Source: Phycisphaerales bacterium UBA966 (GTDB taxonomy: Bacteria > Planctomycetota > Phycisphaerae > Phycisphaerales > SM1A02). Taken from it: a DNA stretch of 35,698 nt. Position numbers and translations under genes: made by a program. The notes beneath the pieces were generated by a model. The model searched no databases and was not told where the DNA came from. It saw nothing but the letters and a program-made list of their open reading frames with translations. Below, in pieces: positions 3,211-35,698 of this stretch. The stretch covers positions 896-36,593 of the forward strand of contig DBCE01000188.1 of the NCBI GenBank assembly GCA_002292895.1, read 5' to 3'. Position 1 is the first letter of the stretch. Each line of letters opens with the position of its first letter.

Positions 3211-3762
3211 TTAGCCCGCTGAGTTTTCTGCCGCGCGTTCGAGCATTTCGACGCTGGCTGCCGTGTGGCCGCTGGTGGAAACCACCGCATCGGCGAGCGT
3301 GCGGTACATGGGAAGGCGCGCCTCACCAAGGAGCAGGGCTTCTTCAGCGAACGAAGCGCCAGCGAGAAGTGGGCGGTCGCCTGGATTGTTGGTGAGCCGT
3401 GCACCCAGCGTTTCGGGTGGCGCTTCCAACAGGATGATTCGAATGGTGCCCGCCGCGCGGGCGGACTCTAGGAGCGCGCGTGCCGCCGGTGTAGTGGGCG
3501 TTCCGCCCCCAAGGGCGATCACAGCACCGGACGTCGATGGGCTGCTGAGAACGTGGGTCAGCGCGGCGCATTCAGCCGCCCGGAAGGCGGGCTCGCCAAC
3601 GGAACGAAACATGGCCGTCACCGATGGCTGACCGGAACCAGCGACGGTGACGTCGTCAAGATCAATGAATTGAGTGTTGAGTCGCTTGGCGAGCAAGCTC
3701 CCAAGCGTGGTCTTACCAGATCCGCGCAGGCCGATGAGCACAACGCGAACAGTTGCTGGCAC
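3211..3762 (-). CDS. aroK: Shikimate kinase
   Basis: The Walker A motif is VVLIGLRGSGKTTLG, followed by FIDLDD. The maximal ORF reaches 3795 but would overlap rpmH. A GTG at 3762, 4 nt after the rpmH stop, gives MPATVRVVLIGLRGSGKT. Confidence 0.85.
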   Translation of the reverse strand: MPATVRVVLIGLRGSGKTTLGSLLAKRLNTQFIDLDDVTVAGSGQPSVTAMFRSVGEPAFRAAECAALTHVLSSPSTSGAVIALGGGTPTTPAARALLESARAAGTIRIILLEAPPETLGARLTNNPGDRPLLAGASFAEEALLLGEARLPMYRTLADAVVSTSGHTAASVEMLERAAENSAG

Positions 3763-4085: not shown

Positions 4086-4742
4086 TCACTCCCCGTGTCG
4101 AGCGATTCGTCCTTCAACAAGGAAGATCACGTCTTCAGCAATGTTGGTGGCGATATCAGCGATGCGCTCCAAGCGCTGGGCAATCTGCATCATGTCGATG
4201 GCCTCGGCGGTGCGGGAGACGTCCTCTTGAATCAGTTTCCTGGACGCAGCCGCCACTTCCTTGTTGAGTGCATCAACGCGCCGGTCGGCGCGCCGAACTT
4301 CATGGCAGCACTCCGTGTCTTCGTCAGAGAGGGCGCCGAGCACTTCGGAAAACATGGTTCGAGCCGCGCTGGCCATGTCGGCAAGTGCGCCAGGAACCTC
4401 GGTTGGACCATGACCGGTGGACCATCGAAGGACCTTCTTGGAAATGCCGCGACTGAGGTCAGCGATGCGCTCAAAGTCGCTGGAGATTCGCACCACGCTC
4501 AGCACAAAGCGCAGGTCATGGGCAACTGGCGCGCCGAGTGCAAGAATGCGCATGCATTGCGATTCAAGCTCAACTTCCATGTTGTCAATTTCGCTGTCGC
4601 CAGCCTTTACCTCTTCCGCAGCTGCAATATCGCCATGAACGAGAGCGCGGGTGGTGAGTTCAAGGCGACGCTCGGTGGCGGAGCCCATGGCAAGCAGGCC
4701 ACGTCGAAGGCTCAAAATTTGGGACTGAAGGTCGATTGCCAT
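4086..4742 (-). CDS. phoU: Phosphate signalling complex protein PhoU
   Basis: It has two PhoU repeats: E.D....E......L.....P.A.DLRF, then FERIADLSRGI, and a second ERIADIATNIAEDV. It lies immediately downstream of pstB. Confidence 0.9.
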   Translation of the reverse strand: MAIDLQSQILSLRRGLLAMGSATERRLELTTRALVHGDIAAAEEVKAGDSEIDNMEVELESQCMRILALGAPVAHDLRFVLSVVRISSDFERIADLSRGISKKVLRWSTGHGPTEVPGALADMASAARTMFSEVLGALSDEDTECCHEVRRADRRVDALNKEVAAASRKLIQEDVSRTAEAIDMMQIAQRLERIADIATNIAEDVIFLVEGRIARHGE

Positions 4743-4767: not shown

Positions 4768-5625
4768 TTAGCCAAAGCGACCGGAGACGTAATCCTCGGT
4801 CTGCTTGTTGGCAGGATTGGTGAAGATGCGATCGGTACTGCCGCATTCCACCAACGTGCCTTCAAAGAAGAACGCAGTGCGATCGCTGACGCGAGCGGCT
4901 TGCTGCATGTTGTGGGTGACGATGACAATGGTGTAACTGGTCTCGAGTTCGCGGATCAGTTGCTCAATGCTGGCGGTCGACTTGGGGTCAAGTGCCGAGC
5001 ACGGCTCGTCCATCAACAGCACTTCCGGTCCAACCGCAATGGCTCGTGCAATGCACAAGCGCTGCTGCTGGCCGCCGGAAAGGCCTAAAGCACTGGAATT
5101 CAGGCGATCTTTGACCTCATCCCAAAGTGCCGCTGCGCGCAGGGAGTTCTCCACCAGTTCGTCAAGGTCAGTGCGGCGAAAGGACCGGTGCAGGCGCGGT
5201 CCGAACGCAACATTGTCGTAGATGGACTTTGTGAATGGGTTTGGTTTCTGAAAGACCATGCCCACGCGGCGGCGCAGTTCCACCACATCGAGCGACCGGC
5301 TGAGCAAGTCATCGCCGTGCAGGGTCAGGGTGCCGCTGGCGCGCGCGCCCGGAATCGGATCGTTCATCCGGTTGATCCAGCGAAGAAAGGTGCTCTTGCC
5401 GCAGCCGGATGGCCCGATCAAGGCGGTCACGCGGCACTTGGGAATTTCCAGCGAGATGCCTTTGAGCGCCTGCACACTGCCGTACCAGCTGTCCAAACCC
5501 TGAGCACGGATCGCAATGTGTTCCGTGTCGGCAACAGGTGCTACCACCACAGCCGGTGCGCCCACGGTCATGGGAGGCTTGATGTCAATGTTTCGTGGCG
5601 GGGGTGCGTTGGGGGGAGTGTTCAT
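4768..5625 (-). CDS. pstB: Phosphate ABC transporter ATP-binding protein
   Basis: Motifs are Walker [10 protein letters not shown], signature [14 protein letters not shown] and Walker [12 protein letters not shown]. The ATG at 5625 lies just after the pstA stop, whereas the longer ORF start at 5748 overlaps pstA. Confidence 0.93.
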
Positions 5626-5644
5626 GGAATGCTCGTGGGCGGCA

Positions 5645-6643
5645 TCAGCCGTTGGCACGTTGCAGGCGATGGCGGATGATGACCGCCAAGGCATTGAGGG
5701 TAAGGAGGACGGCGAGCAACACGATGATGCCGGCAGCGGCCAACTCATGGAATCCAGATTGCTGGCGCATGGACCAGTTATAGATTTGTAGAGGCAGCAC
5801 AGTGAAATCGCTCATCAGGTTCGTTGGCGTGGAGCGAATGAATAGCGGAACGCCAAGTACCAGAATGGGCGCGGCTTCACCGATGGCGCGGCTCATGGCC
5901 AAGATGCCACCGGTCATGATCATGGGAATCGATGCGGGAAGTGTGATATTCCAAGTGGTTTGCCACTGTGTGGCACCCAGCGCTAGGGACGCAGTGCGCA
6001 AACTTGCCGGCACTGTGCGCAACGCTTCTTGGCTGGACACGATGACAATCGGCAACACCACCAGCATCAACGTCAATCCGCCGGCCAGCACTCCGTGGCC
6101 GAACGGGAGTTGTAGATAGAAGAACGACTCCGGCTGTCCAAAGGTGATCGGGCTCTCGCTGTTTGCCGTACCGAACGCACGCGCAAATGCAGTTAAGCCC
6201 AGTATTCCGTAGACAATGGACGGAACGCCGGCGAGATTAGCGATGTTGAGTTGGATGAAACTTCGGAACCGGGATCGTTTGGAAAATTCTTCCAAGTAGA
6301 TGGCGGTGCCCACGCCGATCGGTAATGCCGCAACGGCGCAAATCACGCACACCCAGATGCTGCCCCACAAGGGCGCACGCACGCCGGCTTCTTCAGTCTT
6401 TCGGCTGGCAAATGAAGAGAGGAATTGCCAAGACAGCCGCGCGTGACCGTCCTGCCAAATGGAGACGACGAGCACCACCAAGAGCAACACCGCTAGCGCA
6501 GTGAACGCAATACACACGCCAAGGAATGCGCGATCAACGATGCGTCGACCCACTTGTGATGTCGGCGTTGCCGCGGCAACAATCTCGCCCGGGGTTCGAG
6601 TCCGGGCAATAGACGGAGAGCGTGCGCCGAGGGAGTGCATCAC
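5645..6643 (-). CDS. pstA: Phosphate ABC transporter permease PstA
   Basis: It is a multi-TM permease with an EAA-like loop ([24 protein letters not shown]). It sits between pstC and pstB. Confidence 0.9.
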
Positions 6644-7611
6644 TCGTATTCCTCTCGGAATGCGCGGAGGAAGAGGTTTCCAACAACAGTGAGCGCAAGA
6701 GTGATGACGAAGAGGACGGTGGCTACTGCGAAACTCGACTTGTATTCGATGCCGTACGCGGGGGCGTCGCCGGTAAAGATCTGCACCATGTACGCGGTCA
6801 TGGTTTGCACTTCATTCGCAGGATTGAGGGTCATGCTGGCCAGTCCGCCAGCTGCAAGCGCCACGATCATGGTTTCGCCGATGGCGCGGGTGATGGCTAG
6901 CAACCAACTGGCCACAATACCACTCAGAGCTGCAGGGACAACCACTTTGGTGCTGACATCAAAGCGCGTTCCGCCCATGGCGAACGCAGCGTCCCGCAAG
7001 CTGCGTGGCACCGCTCGCAGTGAATCTTCGGAGAGGCTGGCAACGATCGGCAAGATCATGATTCCAACTGCTAGGCCAGCGCCGAGCGCATTGAACGTGC
7101 CAAACGATTCGCTGACATGGTCATGGAGGAACGGTGTGATGACAGCAAGTGCAAAGAATCCGTAGACGACCGTTGGAATACCTGCAAGTACTTCAAGAAT
7201 GGGCTTCAGAATGGAGCGCACGCGCGATGGTGCGTATTCGCTGAGATAGATGGCAACCACGAGTCCAACGGGCAGCGCGAACGCTGCGGCAATGGAAGTG
7301 ACGAGGAGTGTTCCCGCGATCAGTGGCCAAATTCCAAAGTGCTTCTCTTCCCCTAAGAGTGGCGCCCATGTGGTGCCGGTGAAGAACTCCCACGCGGAGA
7401 CTTGCGGCAAGGCAAAGAACGAAGCGCTTTGCACAAGCAGGATCGCCAAGATGGTGAAGGTGGTGACGATGGAAAGTAGCGCACAGGCGAGGAGGCCGCC
7501 GCGAATGACTCGTTCCGTGCCGATCCGTGCTGCTCGTGAACGTGCAGTGCCTCGGCTGTTTGCGGCTGCTGCGCGACTGGTTGCTGTGGAGATTTCGGCG
7601 ACGTTCGACAT
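6640..7611 (-). CDS. pstC: Phosphate ABC transporter permease PstC
   Basis: It is a multi-TM permease with the loop EDSLRAVPRSLRDAAFAMGGTRF. Its stop overlaps the pstA start by 4 nt. I prefer the ATG at 7611 (MSNVAEIS). Confidence 0.9.
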   Translation of the reverse strand: MSNVAEISTATSRAAAANSRGTARSRAARIGTERVIRGGLLACALLSIVTTFTILAILLVQSASFFALPQVSAWEFFTGTTWAPLLGEEKHFGIWPLIAGTLLVTSIAAAFALPVGLVVAIYLSEYAPSRVRSILKPILEVLAGIPTVVYGFFALAVITPFLHDHVSESFGTFNALGAGLAVGIMILPIVASLSEDSLRAVPRSLRDAAFAMGGTRFDVSTKVVVPAALSGIVASWLLAITRAIGETMIVALAAGGLASMTLNPANEVQTMTAYMVQIFTGDAPAYGIEYKSSFAVATVLFVITLALTVVGNLFLRAFREEYE

Positions 7612-7692
7612 GGTTTCAGCGGAAGGTATCGGGCGGCCGATGTGCCAGGAGCGGGGTGTTGCCCGCCCGGCAGTGCAGGGCGCCGGTGCCAA

Positions 7693-8700
7693 TCATTTGT
7701 AAATGTCCGCCAGAATTCCCATGCGCTCCATGCCGTTTTCGTCCAGCATTTGTGTTCCCAATTTGCTGGCGGCAAGATTGGCTTTGGCGCGCTCGTAAAT
7801 CACGGTGGGAAGTTTGATGTAACCAACTTCGGCCGCGAGTTTGGCGCCATTGTCCAGCGCGAACCCTGCGTACGCCGCCACGGCAGGCTTGGCCAATGAC
7901 GCCTTGTTCACGTAGATGAACAATGGTCTGCTGAACGGTGCGTAACTAGCGTCTTCAATGGTTGTCGGCGAGGGCGTAACGGCAGCGCCAGTCTTTGGAT
8001 TGACTATCGGGACGGCATTCAATTTGCCTTGATTCTCTGCAAAGTAGGCGTATCCAAAGAACCCAATGGCATTCTTGTCGCCTTCAATGGAGCGCACGAT
8101 CACGTTGTCGTCTTCGCTCACGCTGATGTCGGCGCGGATCTTGCCTTCTTTGCCGACGGTGACTTCCTTGAAGTAGTCGAACGTGCCGCTGTCGGTGCCA
8201 GGCGAGTAAACCTTGATCACATCGCTTGGCCAAGACGGATCAACATCCTTCCATGTCTTGGCAGTCTCGCTTGATGCGAAGATTTTTTTCACCTGCGCCA
8301 TGGTGAGCTGCTTCGCCCAAGTGTTTCCCTTGTTGGTCACGATGGTGAGTCCATCAAACGCCACGGGCAGTTCAATGAACTCGATCTTGTGACTCTTGCA
8401 GGCATCGATCTCTGGCTGCTTGATGCAGCGCGAGGCGTTCGATATATCGATCTCACCGTTGCTGAAGCGCTTGAAGCCTCCACCGGTTCCAGACAATCCC
8501 ACGGTGACATTCACTCCGGGAGCCACCTTGGAGAACTCCTCGGCGACGGCTTCGGCAATCAGATACACGGTGGACGATCCGTCAACGCGAACCGCGCCCT
8601 TCAGATTCTTGGGGTCTTGCGTCGGCATCGCCGAGGATGCGGCCATCGAACCGAGAACGGCGGCTACGAGAAAGGCGTTGATCGCTCGAATGGGTCGCAT
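7693..8700 (-). CDS. pstS: Phosphate ABC transporter substrate-binding protein PstS
   Basis: It has a signal peptide (MRPIRAINAFLVAAVLGSMAASSA) and PstS-family motifs (VDGSSTVY...GTGGGFK...SNASR, SPGTDSGTFDYF). Confidence 0.9.
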   Translation of the reverse strand: MRPIRAINAFLVAAVLGSMAASSAMPTQDPKNLKGAVRVDGSSTVYLIAEAVAEEFSKVAPGVNVTVGLSGTGGGFKRFSNGEIDISNASRCIKQPEIDACKSHKIEFIELPVAFDGLTIVTNKGNTWAKQLTMAQVKKIFASSETAKTWKDVDPSWPSDVIKVYSPGTDSGTFDYFKEVTVGKEGKIRADISVSEDDNVIVRSIEGDKNAIGFFGYAYFAENQGKLNAVPIVNPKTGAAVTPSPTTIEDASYAPFSRPLFIYVNKASLAKPAVAAYAGFALDNGAKLAAEVGYIKLPTVIYERAKANLAASKLGTQMLDENGMERMGILADIYK

Positions 8701-8757
8701 GTAGTTCTCGTTCAGATAGTGTGAGGCTCGATCACTCCACGCAATCCAGGCTGGCTG

Positions 8758-10122
8758 TCACGCCGTGCGGCGGGCAGCGGAAGGAGTTACGGGCAGTGTC
8801 GCGGGATCATGTTCATTTGGCGTGTGCAAGGGGGTGGCATCTGCCAGCGGCAGGCTCTTCACTCGCCCGTTAGTGGCGAGGGGCATCCGAATCCGGAATG
8901 TACTGCCGTGATTGGCGTCCGTCCGGCTATCAACCTCCGCATAACCGCCGTGGACCATGGCAACGTGCTTCACGATGGCGAGGCCAAGTCCAGTGCCGCC
9001 GGAATCACGGCTGCGGGCTCGATCCACCCGGTAGAAACGCTCAAACAGGCGCTCGCGGTGAATTTCTGGGATGCCCGGGCCGTGGTCGGTGACTGAGATA
9101 ACCGCATAGCCGCCTTCGGCAGCGGCGGTGACGGCGATCCGCGAATCTGCCGGTCCGTACTTGGCGGCGTTGGAGACCAGATTGACCACGGCATGCGCAA
9201 GGAGTCCGGCGCTTCCAAGAACCCACAGGGAGGGATCGACGGCGACATCAATCGTCAGGCGCTTCTCCGTGGCAGCGGGGGTGACCTGTTCAACTGCTTC
9301 AGCGACGATCCCTGCGATGCGGACAGGCGTGCTGGCGATATCGCCGCGGGCTGATGGGTCCTCAAGTGAGGAGAGGAGCAGGAGGTCATCAATGATCGCG
9401 CCAAGACGGCTGGCACTGCGGGCGATGGTTCGTGAGAAGCGGGCCGCGTCCGGCGGAAGCTCAAAATTTTCCGCCAACGTTTCGGCATACCCACGAATGG
9501 AAGTGATGGGCGTGCGGAGCTCATGGCTCACGTTGGCAACGAACTCGGTTCGCAGAGATTCCAAGCGACGCAGTTCGGTGCGATCTTCAAGCACCAGTAG
9601 TAGTTGTGCGTTGGCAACATCGCGCGAAAGCGGGACCACGGAGCAACTGGCGCGACGCTCGCCCGTGACGGCGGAGAATGGCAGTTCGGCCTCGGCGCGG
9701 CGGCCAGTTTCGCGGGCGCTTGCAATCAGGGTCTCGAGATCGGGACTGCGAACGATTTCAATGAGAAGTCGACCTTCGACAGCGCGATCGTTTGCATCAA
9801 ACAGGCGCACCGCCGCTGGATTGATGGTCACGATGCGGTCGACCGAGTCAAGCGCAACGATTCCGACGGGAGCGGTCGCCAAGATCGCACGCAACTCGCT
9901 GAGCGCGCCATCAAGTCGAACCGCTTCATTGGCCGCTGCACGGGCGCCGCGAACCGGGTTCGATTCAAATCCACCAAGTGCCCCCAGCGCGGCTGCAATG
10001 CGTCGATGTTCAGCTCGGCGCTGCAGGAACAACATGGCAAGCAGCGCTCCGCAGGCAACGGCCACCACGGCTGCCCCAACAAATGGCACGAAATACGAAG
10101 CTGCGTCCGTGGTTGGCTGCAT
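8758..10122 (-). CDS. phoR: Sensor histidine kinase, PhoR-like
   Basis: It has an N-terminal TM helix, a PAS-like segment, the H-box FVANVSHELRTPITSI, the N-box NLVSNAAKYG and the G-box GTGLGLAIV. It lies between phoB and pstS. Confidence 0.85.
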   Translation of the reverse strand: MQPTTDAASYFVPFVGAAVVAVACGALLAMLFLQRRAEHRRIAAALGALGGFESNPVRGARAAANEAVRLDGALSELRAILATAPVGIVALDSVDRIVTINPAAVRLFDANDRAVEGRLLIEIVRSPDLETLIASARETGRRAEAELPFSAVTGERRASCSVVPLSRDVANAQLLLVLEDRTELRRLESLRTEFVANVSHELRTPITSIRGYAETLAENFELPPDAARFSRTIARSASRLGAIIDDLLLLSSLEDPSARGDIASTPVRIAGIVAEAVEQVTPAATEKRLTIDVAVDPSLWVLGSAGLLAHAVVNLVSNAAKYGPADSRIAVTAAAEGGYAVISVTDHGPGIPEIHRERLFERFYRVDRARSRDSGGTGLGLAIVKHVAMVHGGYAEVDSRTDANHGSTFRIRMPLATNGRVKSLPLADATPLHTPNEHDPATLPVTPSAARRTA

Positions 10123-10136
10123 GGATGCGTGGAACG

Positions 10137-10850
10137 CTACTCGACTGCCACCAGGGACTCACCGAACCGGTACCCAACGCCGCGGACGGTTTCCACGCAC
10201 CCAGCGAGTTCGCCAAGTTTCTTGCGCAGGGCCGTGACGTGAACGTCAATGGTGCGGCTGGAGAGGATGACGTTGCGGCCGTGCACCGCTGCGATGATTT
10301 GGTCCCGCGTTCGGACGAAACCGGGGCGTTGCGCCAAGTGATTGAGGATGCCGAATTCTGTCACCGTCAGTTCAACGACGCTGCCATCAACGCTGACCAC
10401 ATGGCGATCAGGATCGATCACCAGTCGGCGATCGAGTCGCTCCAGGCGGTTGTCATCACCGGTGTTCTGCTCTTCGAGTTTGCGGCGCAACACGGCCCGT
10501 ACGCGGGCCATCAGAATGCGTGGGCTGAATGGCTTGACCACGTAGTCATCGGCGCCGATTTCAAGTCCGGTGACGATGTCGGTCTCTTCGCCCTTGGCGG
10601 TCACCATGACGATCGGAAGTTCGCGGGTCTCCGGCCACTGCTTGAGTCGTCGGCAGATTTCCAGGCCGCCGACATCGGGCAGCATGAGGTCAAGGATCAG
10701 GAGGTCCGGCGTTTCGCGCTTCACTTGATCAAGCGCAACCTTGCCGGTGCCCACGGTTCGTGCGTCCATGCCTTCGCGGTCGCAGTGGAATCGGATCAGC
10801 TCGGCAATGTCGGGCTCGTCTTCAACGATCAGGACAGATGGCTTTGCCAT
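10137..10850 (-). CDS. phoB: OmpR-family response regulator, PhoB-like
   Basis: The receiver domain shows VLIVEDEPDI...DLLILDLMLPD...TAKG..., followed by a winged-helix output (VHVTALRKKL...ETVRGVGYRF). Confidence 0.88.
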   Translation of the reverse strand: MAKPSVLIVEDEPDIAELIRFHCDREGMDARTVGTGKVALDQVKRETPDLLILDLMLPDVGGLEICRRLKQWPETRELPIVMVTAKGEETDIVTGLEIGADDYVVKPFSPRILMARVRAVLRRKLEEQNTGDDNRLERLDRRLVIDPDRHVVSVDGSVVELTVTEFGILNHLAQRPGFVRTRDQIIAAVHGRNVILSSRTIDVHVTALRKKLGELAGCVETVRGVGYRFGESLVAVE

Positions 10851-10920
10851 TGTGGGAGTGCTCTACTGTGATAGGAGTCAGGGCTGGACAGATCAGTGAG
10901 GTAGTTTGGCGGGGCGGTGT

Positions 10921-12066
10921 TCAGGTCGTGTTCAGCGCAGGTGGGGAGTTTGCAGCACTTGAACGAATCCATGTTCCGGAGGGTAGGAGCGAAGGGGATG
11001 CGCGCTGGGTCACTGCCGGGAGCGCGATATCAAGTCCGTCGGCAGCAAGTGCCCCCAGGATGGCCCATTCGAGTGCTTCGCGGCAGGAAACCGGCACGCC
11101 CAAGTCTGAAGAAGCAATCACCTTGCAGTTGGCGGTGATGGCAATCGCTGCGCACAGCCTGCCATGGCGAGCGCCGCCGCCCGCGACCACCGCATCGTGG
11201 ACGCCGGACTGACGGATCGCGGAACCGATCGCTTCACCGGTGGCATCAGCAGCGGTGGCGAGCAGGTCGGCGGGTGCCAAGTGTGGCGTGTGGCGATCGA
11301 CCCAGGCGAAGAATTCATCGCCGGTGCCAAGGCTGCGGCCATCCGCGCGGGGGGCGAGAAGCGCGCGGAGTTCTGCAAAGGCAGCATCGTTGCGCGTGCC
11401 GTTGGCGGCCACGGCGCCGCCGGAGTCATAGGGCTGGTCGATCGCGCTGCGCGCGGCGTGGTCGAGCAGTTGATTGCACGCGCACAGGTCAGCGCCACGA
11501 ATAGCAGCCACTTGTTGCGCGTGCGTTCGATCATCATCGGCGGGAAGGAACGTGGCGTTGGCAAAGCCCCCGAGGTTGATGACGGCGCGCGGATGTGCAG
11601 TGCGGAAGAGAATCCAATCGGCAAGCGGGGTGAGTGGGGCGCCTTGCCCGCCGAGCGCCAAGTCCGCGCCGCGCAGGTCAAACACCACATCGCACTGCAG
11701 CGCCAGTGCAACCGGATGCGCGTTCAGCAGCTGCCAACTTTCCGGCGGTCGATGAAAGACCGTTTGACCATGTAAGGCGGCAAGATCTACGTGGGGGATG
11801 CCGGCGCTCCGAAGAAGTTCGATGGATTCCCGTGCGTGCAGCACGCCGAGTTCGCGTGCGATGGCAGCGAATTCGCTGGCGGGCATCGGATGTTGGTTGG
11901 CGGCGGCGCGGAGGCGATCGGCAAGGGGACCGAGCGGAGCAGAGCGCTCCGCGAGCAGTGTGGCGCGCATGGCCAGGCCGGCGCCATCGATACTGGCAAC
12001 GGCGAGATCGATGCCATCGATGCTCGTGCCAGTCATTGCTCCAAGGACGAGGCGGGTTCGTTGCAT
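10921..12066 (-). CDS. anmK: Anhydro-N-acetylmuramic acid kinase
   Basis: The N-terminal motif is GAMTGTSIDGIDLAV, and NLGGFAN is also present. The length of 381 aa fits the family. Confidence 0.88.
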   Translation of the reverse strand: MQRTRLVLGAMTGTSIDGIDLAVASIDGAGLAMRATLLAERSAPLGPLADRLRAAANQHPMPASEFAAIARELGVLHARESIELLRSAGIPHVDLAALHGQTVFHRPPESWQLLNAHPVALALQCDVVFDLRGADLALGGQGAPLTPLADWILFRTAHPRAVINLGGFANATFLPADDDRTHAQQVAAIRGADLCACNQLLDHAARSAIDQPYDSGGAVAANGTRNDAAFAELRALLAPRADGRSLGTGDEFFAWVDRHTPHLAPADLLATAADATGEAIGSAIRQSGVHDAVVAGGGARHGRLCAAIAITANCKVIASSDLGVPVSCREALEWAILGALAADGLDIALPAVTQRASPSLLPSGTWIRSSAANSPPALNTT

Positions 12067-13139: not shown

Positions 13140-13539
13140 GGCAACGAGGGGGAGTCCGCGGGTGGCTTTCGTAGGCCTGCGGGGTGCCGAACGCCCAATT
13201 CTGCCTGACCGTGGCCCCGGGCATCCCCGTCCAGAATTTCGCCAAAGAAAAAGGGCTTGATGTCGCAGATACTTCACTTTGAGGTCGTACTGTTCCCTCA
13301 TCGCCAGTCCGGTTCGGGCCTGGTGGTGGGTGCCCGCGAGGCGGAATACCCGAAAATTTACCGAACAGACCTTGACAAGTCCGATGGTTTGGGAGAACCT
13401 ACCAAACACCGAACAACCATCGGCTTACTCAAACAGTGAAACGCGCATGACCCGCAAAGTACGCGGAATGCAGAGTGTGCAAGGAACGCAGCACGGTGAC
13501 CCAGACGGGTTGCCCCAACCGACGGAGCGAAAGAAACAG

Positions 13540-14841
13540 ATGGCACAGACGACCACGACGGCGAACACCACCACGAACGGAACCCCGGCCTCGGCCGCCC
13601 GCACCTCCAGCACCACCTCCGGCGCGGCGGTGGCGACCCCCGCAGGGCGCGAGAACTTTGGGAAGATGGGCTCCATGCCAACCACCCCCAACAAGTCGTC
13701 CGATTCCCGCGTTGATGTCAAGACTGACGTCAAGAGCGAAGTCAAGGACGCAAAGTCTGCCGCAGCAGCAAAGCCAACAGTGAAGTTGACGCCCGCAGAA
13801 CTGACCGCGCGTACCGCGAAGTCCAAGGCGCTTGAGGCGGCCGTTGGACAGATTGAGAAGAACTTCGGTAAGGGATCGATCATGCGTCTCGACAACGAGA
13901 CCGTGCCGGTGATCCCGTCGATTTCGAGCGGTGCGCTCAGTCTTGATATTGCCCTCGGTGGACGCGGACTCCCGCGCGGTCGAGTGGTGGAGGTCTTCGG
14001 GCCAGAAAGTTCTGGTAAGACGACCCTGGCTCTCACGGTCATTGCCAACAGTCAGAAGAACGGTGGCGTGGCCGCGTTCATCGATGCTGAGCATGCGCTT
14101 GATCCATCGTGGGCCAAGCGTCTGGGTGTGAACCTTGACGAAATTCTGGTGTCGCAGCCCGATACGGGCGAGCAGGCGCTGGAGATCTGCGAGATGCTCG
14201 TGCGTTCCAATGCGGTGGATGTCATCGTGGTTGACTCGGTGGCGGCATTGATCCCACGCGCGGAAATCGAAGGTGAAATGGGTGATAGTCACGTTGGTTT
14301 GCAGGCGCGGCTCATGAGCCAGGCACTGCGCAAGCTGACGGGCGCCATCGCGAAGAGTGAGTGCATCGTGATCTTTATCAATCAGCTGCGCGAGAAGATC
14401 GGCGTCATGTTCGGATCGCCCGAAACAACGACCGGCGGACGTGCGCTGAAGTTCTACTCATCGGTGCGCATTGATATTCGCCGTATTGGCGCGATCAAGG
14501 ATGGCGACCGCAATGTTGGTAATCGTGTGCGTGCGAAGGTAGTGAAGAACAAGGTTGCGCCGCCGTTCCGCGAGGCCGAGTTTGACATCATGTTTGAGGA
14601 GGGCATCTCCGTGTCGGGAGACATTCTCGACCTGTCAGTGCTCGACGGCGTGGTGGACAAGGCTGGTGCTTGGTTCAGCTTCGGAGATGTGCGACTTGGA
14701 CAGGGTCGTGAGGCATCGAAGTTGTTCCTGCGCCAGAACCCAAACCTGATGGAAGAGATTCGCCGCGAGGTCTTGACCAAGCGGTTGGCGAATCCATCGG
14801 CGCCGACTAAGGCTGCACCTGCACCTGCTGCTGACGATTGA
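13540..14841 (+). CDS. recA: Recombinase RecA with an N-terminal low-complexity extension. The start is uncertain; 13447, 13540 and 13676 are possible.
   Basis: Motifs are [21 protein letters not shown], Walker [22 protein letters not shown] and VVDSVAAL. The core starts about 88 codons after the ATG at 13540, which has GGAG 12 nt upstream. Confidence 0.92.
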
Positions 14842-30538: not shown

Positions 30539-31411
30539 ATGGCGAGGCAGCAGAATCTCACCGAAGAGTGGCTTGAAGCCGAACGCGGCGCGCGGGCCTT
30601 CACGGTTGCCGGTGGATGGGGAAGTGCCGACGGCGTGGTTGCGTCACCGTCACGGGATGCTGGTTGGGCGACACGCTCGCGCGGCACGCATGGAAGTCAT
30701 GGCGCCGCCGTACCGGTGGTGCTCTTGGCGCCGCAATGGCCTGGATTGGAAGACTCCGTTGCAGTGGCACTGGCTGATGACGCGGTGGCCGTGGGGCTGC
30801 TGCGCGGCGGTGTTCGTGTGGCTCGCTTGCGCGCGCTGAACTTTTCCGGTCCGCCCGATGTTGGAATGTGGGTTGATGCCATTGTTGACTCACTGCAATC
30901 GATCGCAAGTGGTTCGGGCGCCGTTGGATTGGCTGGAACCTGGGTGGCCGGCACCGCGTGCGCACTGGCCGCTGCGCGTCACGAACAGTTGTTGCTACTG
31001 GTATGTGCTGGAGCCCCCAGCGCCGAGATCATGAGTCGCAGAACTCCAGAGAATGAGGACGACTCCATGTGGACGTCCTCGGCAACGTTGCAACTCATTG
31101 AGCAACTTGCCGACCTGGCACCGCTTGAAGCAGTTGGAGTCTTTCCTCGCCCGTCGTTCTTTGTGCAGGGCGCCGTTGATGAACTGTTGACCGCTGCACA
31201 CTTTGAAGCGTGGCGCGCAGCCATCACCGCCACTGGTCGTTCAGCTGACGGCGTAGAGATTGGTTTCACGGACGCATTCTTTCGATGCGTTGATGCAGGT
31301 GGTGCCATTGACGTGCACGGCGAAGAAGGTCGATCGCTGCTCGCCGACGCAGTGGCGGGCTGGGTAGCGCGTACCGTTACTCCGACCGCAGAGGCTCGTC
31401 GCGTTCGGTGA
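30539..31411 (+). CDS. Hypothetical protein, alpha/beta-hydrolase-like with a degenerate nucleophile elbow
   Basis: The ATG lies 5 nt after the mutL stop. A GLAGTWVAG segment sits where GxSxG would be expected. Family assignment is weak. Confidence 0.45.
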   Translation: MARQQNLTEEWLEAERGARAFTVAGGWGSADGVVASPSRDAGWATRSRGTHGSHGAAVPVVLLAPQWPGLEDSVAVALADDAVAVGLLRGGVRVARLRALNFSGPPDVGMWVDAIVDSLQSIASGSGAVGLAGTWVAGTACALAAARHEQLLLLVCAGAPSAEIMSRRTPENEDDSMWTSSATLQLIEQLADLAPLEAVGVFPRPSFFVQGAVDELLTAAHFEAWRAAITATGRSADGVEIGFTDAFFRCVDAGGAIDVHGEEGRSLLADAVAGWVARTVTPTAEARRVR

Positions 31412-31598
31412 CGATCTGGTGGTACACGGTTTCGCCGGTGCGCATGGTGCGACGGACGTAGGGCGCACACAGCCCGCACCCGGTTCCACACTTGAATTCC
31501 TGCTTGATATCAGCGAACGTTGCGCCCGGATGTGATTCCAGCCACCGCTTCACGGTGCTGAACTCCACCTTGTGACAGACGCATCGCTCAATACGCAC
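31377..31598 (-). CDS. BFD-like [2Fe-2S]-binding domain protein (73 aa)
   Basis: The Cys pattern is CVCHKV...KCGTGCGLC (CxC...CxxxCxxC), typical of BFD-like domains. The GTG start lies 3 nt after the stop of the DUF1559 gene. Confidence 0.65.
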   Translation of the reverse strand: MRIERCVCHKVEFSTVKRWLESHPGATFADIKQEFKCGTGCGLCAPYVRRTMRTGETVYHQIVTERDEPLRSE

Positions 31599-31601
31599 GA
31601 A

Positions 31602-32402
31602 TCAATCGCCTCCATACGCAGCATCGGTTGAAGACAGGAATCCGTTGTCTGGGAATCCCATGACCCATGTTGCCATGGTCGGTGGAATGTTCGGGCTTGA
31701 TTGCGGATCAGCGTAGGTACCAATGTGACCATCAAGGTGCGCGCAACAGGTGCATCCGCCCCAGTGTCGAAACGCTTGTGTCCCTGCCGCAACAAGACCC
31801 AGATCGCCCTCGGCGCGATTCATGGGCGCGCGCATGAATTTGTTTGCACCGCCGCGCCATCCGCCATCACCAAAGACGGCGGTTCCGGAAGGGTCACGGA
31901 TCGCCGTTGGCGGAACGCCCATGCGCGCGGTACGCCATCCGTCAAGCGCATTGCCGCTTGGGTCCACCGTTGGATAGGTGCCTTCGTGCCCAAGGTAACT
32001 GGTGTTGTAGTTGTAGCCCGTATACGGGTCCGCACCGAACGTCGATGCGCCCTCAAAGTCAGGGCATTGCTGCACCGCCAGCGGCGTATCCGTGTAGTCC
32101 CACAGTGGCCCGGGTGTGACAGCGCCGGCGCGTTGCTCAAAGTCCCACGCGATGGTTCGGACCACGCCGGTGTCAAGGACGTAGAGGACCGCCGCAGGCA
32201 TGGCGCCATTGGAGGAAACGTAGGCCTCACACGCGACGGAAATCTGCCGCAAGTTGGAAGTACATGCAGTGCTGCGTGCAATTCCAGAAGCAGATCGAAG
32301 CCCGGGCAATAGCACCGCGATGAGTATGGCGATCACCGCCACGACGACCAAGAGTTCAACAATGGTGAACGCGCGGCGCGGATGTGCGTTGCCGTGTGTC
32401 AT
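31602..32402 (-). CDS. Prepilin-type N-terminal cleavage/methylation domain protein, DUF1559 (H-X9-DG-like) family
   Basis: The N-terminus RRAFTIVELLVVVAVIAILIAVLLPGL is a class III signal. The C-terminal segment is FRHWGGCTCCAHLDGH. The ATG at 32402 overlaps the upstream stop (ATGA). Confidence 0.85.
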   Translation of the reverse strand: MTHGNAHPRRAFTIVELLVVVAVIAILIAVLLPGLRSASGIARSTACTSNLRQISVACEAYVSSNGAMPAAVLYVLDTGVVRTIAWDFEQRAGAVTPGPLWDYTDTPLAVQQCPDFEGASTFGADPYTGYNYNTSYLGHEGTYPTVDPSGNALDGWRTARMGVPPTAIRDPSGTAVFGDGGWRGGANKFMRAPMNRAEGDLGLVAAGTQAFRHWGGCTCCAHLDGHIGTYADPQSSPNIPPTMATWVMGFPDNGFLSSTDAAYGGD

Positions 32403-33337
32403 GACCAATTCCCCAGCATGATGCCAAGGTCGTTGCCGCCCACGTTGCCGTCGTTATTCATATCGCCTGGGCAATCAGCGCACGGCCCCCATGTTCCGAG
32501 CAGCATTCCAAGGTCAATGCCGTTGACTCGGTTGTCATTGTTCAGATCGCCCATCAGACGTGTTGCATGTACGGCAACCACCGCGTCCACCTCCGGAACG
32601 CTGGCGGCGTCCACTGCAACGCGAATGCGGATGAAGCGTGCTGCAGCAATTCCAGCATCAGCAAGGTCAATGCGTGTTCCGCCTGCGGAGTTGCCGTACA
32701 GCGCAAGGAGTTCTTGCCAACTCAGTCCAGCAATGGAATCTGCGGTGATTTGCGGGTCAATCGGCAGCGCAGGATCCGTCGGCAGCGTGCCGGGTGCAGT
32801 GGAGTAGGGCGCAACATCGGTCCAGCCCAGCGTGGGAAGTCCGCCGTCTGCGATCGCGTTCGGAACGGCGAACCACGTGACGCCATCGATACTGAGGTCG
32901 ATCGATCCGCCTTCTGTAAACACCCAACCCGCAACGCCGCCGGGGTAGCCAATGTCTCCGCACATTGCGTTGCCATAGACAATGAGATCCACTCCGAACG
33001 GGTGTGATGCATCATCAACAATCGGTTCTTCAAATGCGATCACCAGTTCGCCACCTCTGCCGATCGACACAATCTCCGACGGCATGAAAGCGGGACGGAA
33101 CGGAGTCACTGCGCCCGGTTCCATTCCAACGCCCGTGAATCGTGTGGGAGGTCCAAGTGCGCTGGCCGGATTTTGGTACGAGCCGCCCGCGCCGCTTCCC
33201 GCGGTGTAGCGAACAACGGTGGTTGCGCAACGCGGCGTATCGGCAACGGATGTCATGCTGGCAATCGCTACGCTGACACACGCCGCGATCATGCGCGTGT
33301 GCATGCCATCCATGGCATGTGCAGGGGTGAATTCCAT
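32399..33337 (-). CDS. Secreted hypothetical protein with C-terminal dockerin-like (EF-hand-like) repeats
   Basis: It has a signal-like N-terminus (MHTRMIAACVSVAIASMTSVA). Two DxNxDxxVNxxDL-type repeats are present (GDLNNDNRVNGIDLGMLLGTWG and GDMNNDGNVGGNDLGIMLGNW). Possible starts are 33337, 33313 and 33304. Confidence 0.7.
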   Translation of the reverse strand: MEFTPAHAMDGMHTRMIAACVSVAIASMTSVADTPRCATTVVRYTAGSGAGGSYQNPASALGPPTRFTGVGMEPGAVTPFRPAFMPSEIVSIGRGGELVIAFEEPIVDDASHPFGVDLIVYGNAMCGDIGYPGGVAGWVFTEGGSIDLSIDGVTWFAVPNAIADGGLPTLGWTDVAPYSTAPGTLPTDPALPIDPQITADSIAGLSWQELLALYGNSAGGTRIDLADAGIAAARFIRIRVAVDAASVPEVDAVVAVHATRLMGDLNNDNRVNGIDLGMLLGTWGPCADCPGDMNNDGNVGGNDLGIMLGNWS

Positions 33338-33417
33338 ACTGGCCTAGCTCAGCCGCGCCTGCGGCCGTAAATGGTCCATCCGGTCTTAAGCCCAAATCGC
33401 GTGGGCGTGACCGATGC

Positions 33418-33575
33418 GCAGGCCGGTCTTCCGGCTAAGGGCTCCGGCTCCGCCTTCCCAGTCCAGCGCGTTGCACGCGGGACCAGTGGCTCATGGAGTC
33501 CGGCTGCGGGAGTGCCCGCTGCCCATTCACGGCGGCGCGTCCGCGGCGGTCTTTCACCGCCTTCCCGAGCCGGAA
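33418..33575 (-). promoter_or_regulatory. Cobalamin (AdoCbl-type) riboswitch aptamer in the 5' leader of the 33337..31377 operon
   Basis: Conserved blocks occur in the canonical order on the minus strand. They are GGGAAGGCGGUGAAAGACCGCC, GCGGACGCGCCGCCGUGAA, GCCACUGG-hairpin-CUGGGAAGGC, and the B12 box AGCCGGAAGACCGGCC (plus 33421-33436). UUCCGGCU just 5' of GGGAA is complementary to AGCCGGAA in the B12 box. Confidence 0.8.
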
Positions 33576-33618
33576 ATCGTGCATTTGGACGGACCTGTCC
33601 AAATGCGCCAGTTTCCGG
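33570..33618. repeat. Nested inverted repeat (extended hairpin or operator) abutting the riboswitch
   Basis: The outer arms are CCGGAAA (33570-33576) and TTTCCGG (33612-33618). The inner arms form a perfect 10-bp repeat, GCATTTGGAC (33581-33590) and GTCCAAATGC (33597-33606). Confidence 0.6.
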
Positions 33619-33698
33619 CCTTCCGCAGCCACGGGGCTGCGAACGCCTGCGCAAGGTCGAGTGTAGCCGCTGCGGCGGGCAGCGTCCCGAAACTTTCA

Positions 33699-33728
33699 TT
33701 GACACCACACCGTCCGGTGGCGTAGATT
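33699..33728 (+). promoter_or_regulatory. Sigma-70-like promoter candidate for the gene starting at 33903
   Basis: The pattern is TTGACA (33699-33704), an 18-nt spacer, then TAGATT (33723-33728). This implies a 5' UTR of about 165 nt. It is a sequence match only. Confidence 0.35.
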
Positions 33729-33902
33729 CGCGACCCTTCCCGGGCATCCGGAAGGGGTTCGGCTGCGTAGCCCTCCACCGAAGGATCGGTGGGGCCACCG
33801 GCCTTCCGCCCTCCGTCTGCCCCGTTCAGCCATCCTGGCTGGGCGCCGTTTGTACCGAGCTTCCCCGTTTGGCGGGGAGGCGCTCCGAATTGAGGTCCAG
33901 AA

Positions 33903-35698
33903 GTGCACGTCCTGAAGCGTTCGCAGCTGATTCTCCCGCTCGCACTCGTTGCCATCACTGGCGGCTTTACGCTGCCTGCCATGGCGCAGGATGGCGCGGC
34001 TCCGGCTGCTGCTCAGCCTGAGTCTGGTGCGGATCGCACCAAGCTCATCGAAGCGGCTTCGCTCTATGTGCACAACGTCATGATTGCCAAGCCCGAGGGC
34101 GCGACCGCCGCGGCCAATGTGTTGCTTGCTGACTCCGTGGAGCCAAGCGAACTGGCCATGGTGATCGACAGCGCCGACCTTGGTAAGCGCATGGACGAAG
34201 CGTTCCGTCGCAGCCGTCGGATGGCCGATGTCGCCGATGCCTCCGCTGCACTGGAAACCAAACTTGAAGCAGGGCGTCAGTTGCTCGCGCGCAAGATTGA
34301 TCGCATTGAAGAAGCCGTCAAGATGCTGGTTGGACCGATGCGCGGTCAGATGATCGCCACCGATCGATTGATGGCTGCTGGTGAGTACGCCACCCCCGCG
34401 CTCATGCGTCAAGTGGTTGAAGGCCGTGATCTTGGGCTCGAAGCCGCATCCATGCGCATGCTGGTGCAGATGCGCCGTCAGTCAGCGCTGCCGTTGGCAC
34501 TTGCAGTGAAGTCACTCGATCCAGCCGCGCAGCGCAAGATCTGCGTGATCTTGGGTCAGCTTGGCTATCCGGTATCGGTTCCAGTTCTCTTGGATTTGGC
34601 ACAAACGAAGGGTGTAACGCCAGATGTCAGTGGTGCTGCCATGGACGCCGTCCGCGCGCTCGGCGCCACTGATCAGCCTGCCCACAAGGCGTATGCAGAG
34701 CAGGCCTATGCGTTCCTCACTGCCGATCCATCACTCGCTGCGTATCCCTCCGAGTCAATGCAGAACGTCTGGAAGTGGACGGAGTTTGGCGGCCTGGCTG
34801 CGGACCGCATTTCTACCAAGGTTTACTATGACGCCATGGCGATGATGCTTTCGCGCCGCGCGCTTGAACTTGATGCAAGCGATGACCGTGCGTTGGCAAT
34901 CTTTGTTGCCGCTGACTTGCGTCGCGAAGCCGCGATGACCGACGGCGTGATCGATCCGCTCTTTGATGGTCAAGGTCGGTCCGCGCAGTTCTATGCAACC
35001 ACTGCTGGTCCGCAGACGATGCAGGCCGTATTGCAGATCGGTATGGATTTGTCGGACACTGGTCTGGTGCGTTCGTCGCTTGCTGCGCTTCGTGAGACAG
35101 CCAGCGCATCCGCCATGATTGGCGATGGTTCAACATCGGTAGTGAAGGCGCTGGATTACGCGGATCGTCGCGTGCAGTTTGAGGCGGCGTTCACGCTCGC
35201 TTCGATTACACCGAAGGCTTCGTTTGCAGGGAGCGAGCAAGTTGTTCCGCTGCTTGCGCAGGCCATTCGTGGCGGCAACGAAACCTACGCAGGCGTGATT
35301 AGCCGCGGTACCGAGGATGCGCAACGCATCGCGGGCGCTCTGCGCACCCTGGGCTTCATGCCGTTGACGACCGCAAGTGACGCCAAGGAATTTGGGGCGA
35401 TCGCAGCGCGCAATGCGGGCGCGGACATCGTGGTGATTGCTGGAAACGGCGCGCAGGTGCGTTCGCAGTACCAGGCTGTTCGTGCGATGCGTATCGGTGC
35501 GAACATCCCGGTCATTGTGGTGGCGCAGCCCGCTGACAAGGCTGGGCTCGACAAGCTTGCTGATGACGGTCGTACCGTGGTCCTCGGCGCTGACATTTCC
35601 GATGATGCATTCAAGGCCGGCGCAGACGCGTTGGTTGCCAAGGCACTCGGTGGTCGATTGGGCGCTGCGGACAGTTCGCGTTACGTGAACGACGGAAT
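33903..35698 (+). CDS. Secreted alpha-helical (HEAT/ARM-like) repeat protein. The 3' end runs off the window, so it is absent from the ORF track.
   Basis: My own translation from the GTG at 33903 (GAGG lies 8 nt upstream, with an in-frame TGA at 33891) gives VHVLKRSQLILPLALVAITGGFTLPAMAQD, a signal peptide. About 570 further codons follow without a stop, to 35698. HEAT-like segments include ATPALMRQVVEG...ALPLALAVKSLDPAAQRKICVILGQLGYPVSVPVLLDL. Confidence 0.75.
   Translation, partial: MHVLKRSQLILPLALVAITGGFTLPAMAQDGAAPAAAQPESGADRTKLIEAASLYVHNVMIAKPEGATAAANVLLADSVEPSELAMVIDSADLGKRMDEAFRRSRRMADVADASAALETKLEAGRQLLARKIDRIEEAVKMLVGPMRGQMIATDRLMAAGEYATPALMRQVVEGRDLGLEAASMRMLVQMRRQSALPLALAVKSLDPAAQRKICVILGQLGYPVSVPVLLDLAQTKGVTPDVSGAAMDAVRALGATDQPAHKAYAEQAYAFLTADPSLAAYPSESMQNVWKWTEFGGLAADRISTKVYYDAMAMMLSRRALELDASDDRALAIFVAADLRREAAMTDGVIDPLFDGQGRSAQFYATTAGPQTMQAVLQIGMDLSDTGLVRSSLAALRETASASAMIGDGSTSVVKALDYADRRVQFEAAFTLASITPKASFAGSEQVVPLLAQAIRGGNETYAGVISRGTEDAQRIAGALRTLGFMPLTTASDAKEFGAIAARNAGADIVVIAGNGAQVRSQYQAVRAMRIGANIPVIVVAQPADKAGLDKLADDGRTVVLGADISDDAFKAGADALVAKALGGRLGAADSSRYVNDG

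Follow-up and report, generated by a model that had tools for sequence, protein, structure and literature searches.

The window analysed here is a stretch of 35,698 nucleotides (nt) from Phycisphaerales bacterium UBA966 (contig DBCE01000188.1, positions 896 to 36,593). On its minus strand it carries a cobalamin riboswitch followed by three closely packed genes: gene 1 (32399..33337), gene 2 (31602..32402) and gene 3 (31377..31598). Gene 1 encodes a protein of 312 amino acids (aa) that is predicted to be secreted and anchored at the cell surface, gene 2 a 266-aa pseudopilin of the type IV pilin class that begins with ATG, and gene 3 a 73-aa BFD-like [2Fe-2S] protein with a GTG start. We consider it probable that this operon is a corrinoid (vitamin B12) scavenging module, switched on at low B12.

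The riboswitch aptamer (RF00174; 33404..33613, minus strand) was found with cmscan, which matched the complete model (positions 1-189/189) at 60.8 bits, where the gathering score is 31.5, and with an E-value of 7.7e-13. It contains the B12 box AGCCGGAAGACCGGCC and is the single cobalamin riboswitch match in the window. Cobalamin riboswitches are normally OFF switches. The ATG of gene 1 (33337) is located 66 nt downstream of the end of the aptamer; the TGA of gene 1 and the ATG of gene 2 share an ATGA overlap at 32399-32402, which is retained in orthologues, and genes 2 and 3 are separated by 3 nt (TTC, 31599-31601). Identical contigs, called independently, yield the same three genes, which are, to judge by their spacing, translationally coupled. 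An earlier note on this DNA had described a riboswitch heading three coupled minus-strand genes, with this same overlap and gap, and the full-length RF00174 match and the open reading frames (ORFs) confirm that description. The coordinates it gave for the system, 31377-33337, cover the three genes and leave out the riboswitch.

Directly 3′ of the aptamer lies a P13-like hairpin, GCCCA-CGCGAUU-UGGGC (33390..33406, minus strand), which was recognized from invariant columns of the leader alignment. The CGCG of its loop is complementary to a CGCG in L5, so that the two form a candidate kissing loop. The candidate L5-L13 pair is G-C in 58 loci and A-T in L022, where both sides of the loop pairing are altered together (CGCA with UGCG); this is the sole clear compensatory change among 61 loci. 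We infer, short of proof, that the P13-like hairpin and its contact with L5 would be part of the expression platform. A second, small hairpin, GCCGC-AGGC-GCGGC (33352..33365, minus strand), found in the same alignment 15-28 nt upstream of the gene-1 start codon, reads GCTGC-TTCG-GCAGC in L007 and L008, a two-sided change that preserves the pairing. An 11-codon upstream ORF in the leader (33344-33379, minus strand), ending 6 nt before the gene-1 ATG, was rejected; it is probably not functional because its ATG reads ACG in L007-L009. The minus-strand ORF upstream of the riboswitch (33696-34412) was also rejected as a gene, being the shadow of a plus-strand gene for a 768-aa protein. A simple promoter scan gave nothing usable. 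At the far end of the operon, gene 3 and a conserved 290-aa gene transcribed towards it (30539-31411, plus strand; located after mutL) share 35 nt at their 3′-ends (31377-31411), with no space for a terminator in between.

The linkage of riboswitch, gene-1 family and DUF1559-like pseudopilin is conserved across Phycisphaerae/Planctomycetota. Homologues of gene 1 (n=137), whose names go no further than "hypothetical" or "dockerin-anchored," come from metagenome-assembled genomes of Phycisphaerales/Planctomycetota, mostly from freshwater, and the closest of them, with 95% identity, belongs to a Lake Baikal genome. The earlier note had proposed comparative genomics as a check, and RF00174 does recur upstream of gene-1 homologues in nearly all loci examined. 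Counting an RF00174 match upstream of the homologue on the same strand, we found it in 11 of the 12 genome loci with sufficient upstream DNA, the exception being L012, where a riboswitch resembling that of L011 falls just under the threshold. It is also present in L017, L018 and L020-L023 (6/6), in the PEP-CTERM branch L104-L108 (5/5), and in 39 of 40 metagenome loci having 42-53% whole-protein identity. The exception among the latter, L052, has its aptamer core deleted (3272-3472) with both flanks and the downstream genes retained, and this natural deletion should render the operon B12-blind.

A pilin-like gene accompanies the gene-1 homologue in every locus with enough flanking DNA. The common synteny block comprises a HEAT-like gene, the riboswitch, gene 1, the pilin, the BFD gene, the 290-aa gene and mutL. 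Since one block is shared while MutL identity drops to approximately 43%, deep retention rather than independent association is indicated, and the 80 metagenome loci, all of which lie in this block, were rejected as independent evidence. Eight loci are found outside the block (L020, L021, L023, L104, L105, L106, L107 and L108), and every one of them has RF00174 and a DUF1559-like pilin beside the gene-1 homologue. No TonB-dependent receptor or Plug domain occurs in the window operon or in any annotated locus examined, and cob/cbi genes are likewise missing from every locus examined.

In four of the loci outside the block (L020, L021, L023 and L106) the gene-1 homologue and the pilin are separated by a secreted PQQ_2-type beta-propeller, which in L020 and L023 bears a dockerin-like tail; in L108 another dockerin protein takes the place of the propeller. 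Propeller and gene-1 domain are fused, in either order, in P0249, P0262 and P0148. Behind the 111-bit riboswitch of L104 are genes for a PEP-CTERM protein, for the homologue of gene 1 and for the pilin; a small lipoprotein-like ORF comes next, and Peripla_BP_2, FecCD and ABC_tran genes follow it. Among NCBIfam models the permease matches BtuC best and the ATPase the corrinoid ABC ATPase, and BtuF is the second-best match of the binding protein, all of these scores being below the equivalog cut-offs; at the level of these profiles the L104 operon continues into a BtuF/BtuC/BtuD-like ABC importer. L105 possesses two riboswitches in tandem units (4508-4739 and 5725-5930), the first heading the pilin and the second the gene-1 homologue, and its pilin is a bona fide DUF1559 protein (150 bits) that also matches TIGR04294 with 22.1 bits against a cut-off of 19. 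L107 carries two pilins, each of its own subtype.

A second uncharacterised PEP-CTERM surface domain (L104 638-1231; residues 1-230 of P0136), with the motif F-D-D-[IV]-E-[FY]-W-x-G-[ST]-G ... W-D-G-W-S, follows the riboswitch of L104 and precedes the gene-1 homologue. In about 10 cluster representatives a single call contains this domain together with the gene-1 domain; an internal PEP-CTERM suggests that some of these joined proteins are merged gene calls.

Gene 1 begins with a signal-peptide-like N-terminus (about aa 1-33, within 32399..33337, minus strand) and ends in a dockerin-like double F-hand tail (aa 259-312; 32402-32563, minus strand). A signal peptide and two dockerin/EF-hand-like repeats had been noticed earlier, and the translation bears both out: the C-terminus contains two DxNxDG F-hand repeats, DLNNDNRVNGIDLGMLLG and DMNNDGNVGGNDLGIMLG. 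The window protein scores 18.8 bits with Dockerin_1 (PF00404), below the gathering score of 22.9. Among 52 members of the family 35 match this model at E <= 1 (best E 9.7e-9), and others carry PEP-CTERM tails. The gene-1 profile matches PDB dockerins with E-values of 5e-4 to 1e-2, and Foldseek superimposes the tail on the type II dockerin 2y3n_B with a template modelling (TM) score, target-normalized, of 0.82 and 1.4 Å root-mean-square deviation (rmsd) over 56 columns. With its duplicated, predicted calcium-binding F-hand, the tail is dockerin-like by both sequence and model.

The remainder of the protein (aa 36-258; 32564-33232, minus strand) is a beta-sandwich domain in the AlphaFold2 model, with a predicted local distance difference test (pLDDT) value of 96, against 91 for the whole protein. 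It belongs to an unnamed family: this N-terminal domain of approximately 220 residues has no sequence match in Pfam, NCBIfam or the PDB, where the tail (dockerin or PEP-CTERM) is all that was matched. At E <= 1e-3 the family numbers 1938 cluster representatives (50% identity) and has no Pfam model; the domain shows many invariant Asp and Gly residues. The usual layout is a signal peptide, the gene-1 domain and a PEP-CTERM or dockerin tail, which implies a cell-surface location for the family. The 52 members hit 13 Pfam families at E <= 1, none of them B12-binding; these are dockerin, EF-hand, PEP-CTERM and FG-GAP families together with weak one-off matches. Clear homology of gene 1 to an unrelated enzyme family had been named in the earlier note as an argument against a role in corrinoid capture, and no enzyme family was matched.

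The best PDB match of the gene-1 model is chain B of 8BLW (8blw_B), which is BtuG1 of the Bacteroides thetaiotaomicron BtuB1G1 B12 transporter. The comparison with BtuG-, BtuH- and BtuF-like folds suggested in the earlier note thus returned BtuG1 as the sole PDB match at E <= 0.001, in both of the Foldseek searches (E-values of 1.6e-5 and 2.4e-5, probability 1.0), the similarity being weak (TM 0.41). BtuG1 consists of a beta-propeller followed by a C-terminal BtuH-type B12-binding domain of about 250 residues (PMC10404256, PMC8941943). Gene 1 lacks a propeller, so this H-domain is the most likely counterpart in the match. The BtuH domain has been described as resembling only the globular (CBM-like) domains associated with alginate lyases (PMC8941943). 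Entries for the B12-binding DUF4465/BtuJ jelly roll (IPR027828), namely BtuJ and D5EK51, whose presence in the structure library was not verified, were not among the top 50 Foldseek matches, and a search of a viral structure library gave generic jelly rolls only. Neither BtuH nor BtuG was matched in profile and single-sequence searches of the PDB with gene 1, and the propeller-fused members P0262 and P0249, used as intermediates, provided no PDB sequence link to either protein. The residues by which a BtuH-type site would be recognized are those that contact B12 in BtuH2, namely Tyr510, Trp511, Trp577, His476, Asn399 and Gln333. We regard the fold match as a lead rather than as membership of the BtuG1 or BtuH families and propose that gene 1 may be a surface-anchored corrinoid-capture protein.

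Gene 2 has a prepilin leader (aa 1-11) with a predicted cleavage site at A11|F12 (RRA|FTIVELLVV) and Glu at position +5. N_methyl scores 27.0 bits (cut-off 21.2) and TIGR02532 21.3 bits (cut-off 16.3), and residues 12-66 align from residue 1 of the mature pilins in PDB filaments, over the approximately 55 residues of the alpha1 helix; the N-terminus is closest to GspG, ComGC and PilA-type pilins. The leader, Glu+5 and hydrophobic alpha1 together assign the predicted product to the type IV pilin/pseudopilin class. Of the earlier label, "DUF1559 pseudopilin," the pilin class therefore stands on N_methyl and TIGR02532, while DUF1559 (PF07596, SBP_bac_10) falls under the Pfam threshold, with 21.8 bits against 23.3 and profile positions 7-36 (30/268) aligned. 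With hhalign, a profile of gene-2 orthologues matches a bona fide DUF1559 protein at 99% probability over the first 90 aa or so only, and the globular domain forms a separate subfamily. Considering the sub-threshold match and the N-terminal homology of about 90 residues, gene 2 is therefore best described as a divergent DUF1559-like pseudopilin. No match of gene 2 to TIGR04294 (H-X9-DG) came up at E <= 0.1, and the C-terminal motif, RH-WGGCTCCAHL-DG, has a spacing of 10 (RH-x10-DG) rather than that of H-x9-DG.

The Cys-rich insert GGCTCCAH in this RH...DG motif (window 32060-31750, minus strand; residues ~213-226) is a feature of the clade of the window that L017 and L022 lack; it may represent a disulfide or metal site.

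Gene 3 passes the Pfam cut-off for Fer2_BFD (PF04324; 29.9 bits against 26), has no signal peptide, and contains Cys6, Cys8, Cys41 and Cys44, the CxC...CxxC set. These data uphold the earlier description of a 73-aa BFD-like protein, and we assign it to the BFD-like [2Fe-2S] domain, the cluster itself being predicted. In L017, L020 and L023 the pilin is followed by a BFD-like ORF with this arrangement of cysteines; across the loci the gene is accessory, not universal. A function as redox partner would be pure conjecture. In L107 the operon region runs on (9388-11261) into genes for a flavoprotein (Pyr_redox_2) and for a secreted, Cys-rich protein of 171 aa, which may be alternative redox partners replacing the BFD-like gene. 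Downstream of the gene-1/pilin/BFD set of L017 (10259-14777) lie three paralogous membrane proteins of ~380-455 aa ending in CPECG and a protein of 201 aa from the nitroreductase family. The nitroreductase superfamily also includes BluB, the lower-ligand synthase.

The known systems that most resemble this operon are the B12 uptake loci of Bacteroides, which encode the accessory surface lipoproteins BtuG, BtuH and BtuJ (PMC6143338, PMC8941943, PMC10404256, bioRxiv 10.1101/2025.08.21.671476). Like these, the gene-1 proteins are riboswitch-controlled, secreted, surface-anchored and non-enzymatic, with beta-rich domains, and, as in BtuG1, a beta-sandwich can be found beside or fused with a beta-propeller. 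The two groups have no sequence similarity, however, and whereas BtuG, BtuH and BtuJ are lipid-anchored, the gene-1 family relies on a dockerin or PEP-CTERM tail. The propellers near the gene-1 family are of the PQQ_2/BamB type, while those neighbouring DUF4465 genes are PF16819 (DUF4465 preprint). Finally, the Bacteroides loci include BtuB, a TonB-dependent transporter, and the gene-1 loci have a linked pilin instead. The best-supported reading, by analogy, is that the system would work like the accessory B12-binding surface proteins of Bacteroides, built from other families and anchors and with a pilin replacing the linked TonB transporter. The E. coli-type BtuB-BtuFCD system is similar in having RF00174 ahead of uptake genes, and its importer has BtuF/BtuC/BtuD-like counterparts in the L104 operon; unlike it, the window operon is without transporter genes, and none of the examined loci has a TonB-dependent receptor.

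DUF1559 is the largest paralogue family in Planctopirus limnophila, with 68 copies of unknown function (PMC10632474). Gene 2 shares with the DUF1559/H-X9-DG proteins (PF07596, TIGR04294) the prepilin leader, the alpha1 helix, homologous first ~90 residues and an RH...DG near the C-terminus, and in L105 a full member of DUF1559 is itself under riboswitch control; it differs from them in the sub-threshold and partial Pfam match, in the undetected TIGR04294, and in its own globular subfamily. A functional analogy, and no more than that, may be made with the pseudopili of competence (ComGC/PilA), by which DNA is drawn in through the outer layers, since gene 2 is pilin-class and putatively co-regulated with uptake of an external ligand or macromolecule that is scarce. 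Here, in contrast, the ligand would be a vitamin of ~1.3 kDa, and the operon has no linked genes for an assembly ATPase, a platform or a secretin; uptake driven by retraction of a gene-2 pseudopilus would be purely hypothetical.

Under the corrinoid-scavenging proposal, low cellular B12 would leave the mRNA open for expression. Gene 1 would be exported by means of its signal peptide and held at the surface by the calcium-binding dockerin-like tail, or by PEP-CTERM/exosortase in relatives, and its beta-sandwich would capture corrinoids from the water, as BtuG, BtuH and BtuJ do in Bacteroides. Gene 2 would be cut by a prepilin peptidase and built into a pseudopilus resembling those of type II secretion (T2S) or type IV pili (T4P), which might convey through the outer membrane and periplasm the corrinoid, or the gene-1 protein loaded with it, or else position gene 1 on the surface. 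An inner-membrane BtuFCD-type importer, presumably encoded elsewhere in the genome, or in the operon itself as in L104, would complete uptake. The cytoplasmic BFD-like protein might be an optional electron donor, for example in Co(III) corrinoid reduction before adenosylation or decyanation, which is the least supported step. The earlier note had arrived at a corrinoid capture or uptake module, and the computational evidence now speaks for it: the recurring riboswitch linkage, the L104 importer, the riboswitch ahead of the L105 pilin and the BtuG1 fold match. A B12-independent isozyme, as in metE or nrd-type cargo, was rejected because none of the three proteins resembles an enzyme or matches an enzyme family.

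A number of observations weigh against this proposal. The BtuG1 match is weak and at the level of fold only, with TM scores of 0.41 (domain) and 0.32 (entire protein) and an rmsd of 13 Å, and the Foldseek output does not report which part of BtuG1 was aligned. The top 50 matches do not include BtuH2 (7BIZ); the next fold neighbours are CBM32, discoidin and galactose-oxidase N-domain jelly rolls (E >= 3e-3), and the gene-1 family has no sequence similarity to B12-binding proteins in the PDB and Pfam, DUF4465 included. Most of the ~100 loci represent a single vertically inherited synteny block, so that independent support is confined to the eight loci outside it, and of these L023 is only partly independent because its distant neighbours (S41 peptidase, HflX) are shared with the window. 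The BFD-like gene is absent from L018, L022 and L104. As to regulation, a simple consensus scan of the leader and operon (31000-34600) revealed no intrinsic-terminator-like site. For this genome both a BtuFCD importer and the lack of BtuB are suppositions that reach beyond the window, and corrinoid binding, regulation and uptake are predictions from computation.

The alternative that survives best retains corrinoid acquisition but has a pseudopilin that never contacts B12: gene 2 would be a T2S-type component that exports the gene-1 protein through a secretin or anchors it, outer-membrane transport being left to an unlinked BtuB or porin. Pseudopili are, in textbook accounts of T2S, classically export devices; the N-terminus of gene 2 is nearest to GspG, ComGC and PilA-type pilins, and both gene 1 and the propeller proteins, being secreted, must reach the surface. 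T2S pseudopilins, however, are not normally cargo-specific or co-regulated with a single cargo, and the L105 pilin is under a B12 riboswitch of its own, separate from that of the gene-1 homologue. The presence of two different pilins in the L107 operon also counts against an export device, as does the lack of a linked BtuB in any locus, even in L104 with its linked BtuFCD-like importer. We consider this explanation credible yet unlikely.

Only a slight chance is given to adhesion induced by B12 starvation, in which a lectin-like surface beta-sandwich and the pilin, with the propeller in relatives, would attach the cell to B12 producers or particles. The fold neighbours of gene 1 other than BtuG1 are carbohydrate-binding CBM32/discoidin domains, and dockerin/PEP-CTERM anchors and pilins are typical of adhesins; moreover, passages in two reports place Phycisphaerae often with algae and cyanobacteria (PMC7029141, PMC11136935). 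The best structural match is nevertheless a B12-binding lipoprotein, with an E-value more than 100 times better than that of any lectin, and in L104 the module shares its operon with a BtuFCD-like importer. The cobalamin-riboswitch regulons that are generally known, furthermore, do not contain adhesins. Slighter still is the chance that cobalt, or another tetrapyrrole or metal complex feeding B12 synthesis, is captured instead of finished corrinoids, for while cobalamin riboswitches are generally known to control cobalt transporters and cob/cbi genes as well, the invariant Asp and Gly of the gene-1 domain could bind metal, and a BFD-like Fe-S protein is present, the L104 importer is of the Peripla_BP_2/FecCD class (corrinoids, haem, siderophores) and not CbiMNQO, NiCoT or CorA, and cob/cbi genes occur in no locus.

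Upstream of the riboswitch, divergent from it and not controlled by it, lies the 5′ part of a gene for a 768-aa secreted alpha-helical (HEAT-like) protein (33903..35698, plus strand), which runs past the window and is called in L015 (951-3257) and L016. It has a signal-peptide-like N-terminus and a HEAT match below the Pfam cut-off. The gene adjoins the operon throughout the synteny block wherever upstream DNA is available (32-99% identity), and also in L017, L018 and L022, three loci with a dockerin-tailed gene 1; the eight loci outside the block, where PEP-CTERM tails predominate, do not have it. The protein might be a docking partner, but, being divergently transcribed and missing from those eight loci, it was not adopted as part of the system. 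Elsewhere in the window a phosphate-type ABC transporter (PBP_like_2, two BPD_transp_1, ABC_tran) is located downstream of a PAS/HisKA/HATPase kinase on the same strand (4768-10122, minus strand); this set is ordinary housekeeping context. In a RecA ORF listed with 520 aa (13279-14841, plus strand) the RecA domain begins at residue 183; either the TTG start has been placed wrongly or the N-terminus carries an unusual extension.

In full-text searches of the literature we found no report that connects cobalamin riboswitches to DUF1559, to pilins or to PEP-CTERM proteins, nor any on how Planctomycetes take up B12. Aquatic microbial communities trade B12 as a commodity, and the known outer-membrane route (BtuB, with BtuG, BtuH and BtuJ in Bacteroidota) is absent from all of these riboswitch-controlled loci. 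An uncharacterised surface family of ~1900 cluster representatives, together with a pilin, would add new families to those that bind or handle B12, and DUF1559-type pilins would gain their first ligand-linked functional handle. In its fullest form, which we put forward as a tentative and rather doubtful extension, the proposal is that B12 uptake across the outer membrane of Phycisphaerae would need no TonB-dependent receptor and lead from a surface capture protein, representing a new fold family, by way of a DUF1559-type pseudopilin and a T2S/T4P-like machine to BtuFCD. If true, the DUF1559 family would have its first assigned ligand, and the planctomycete paralogues of DUF1559, which number dozens, would then be candidates for substrate-specific uptake pilins.

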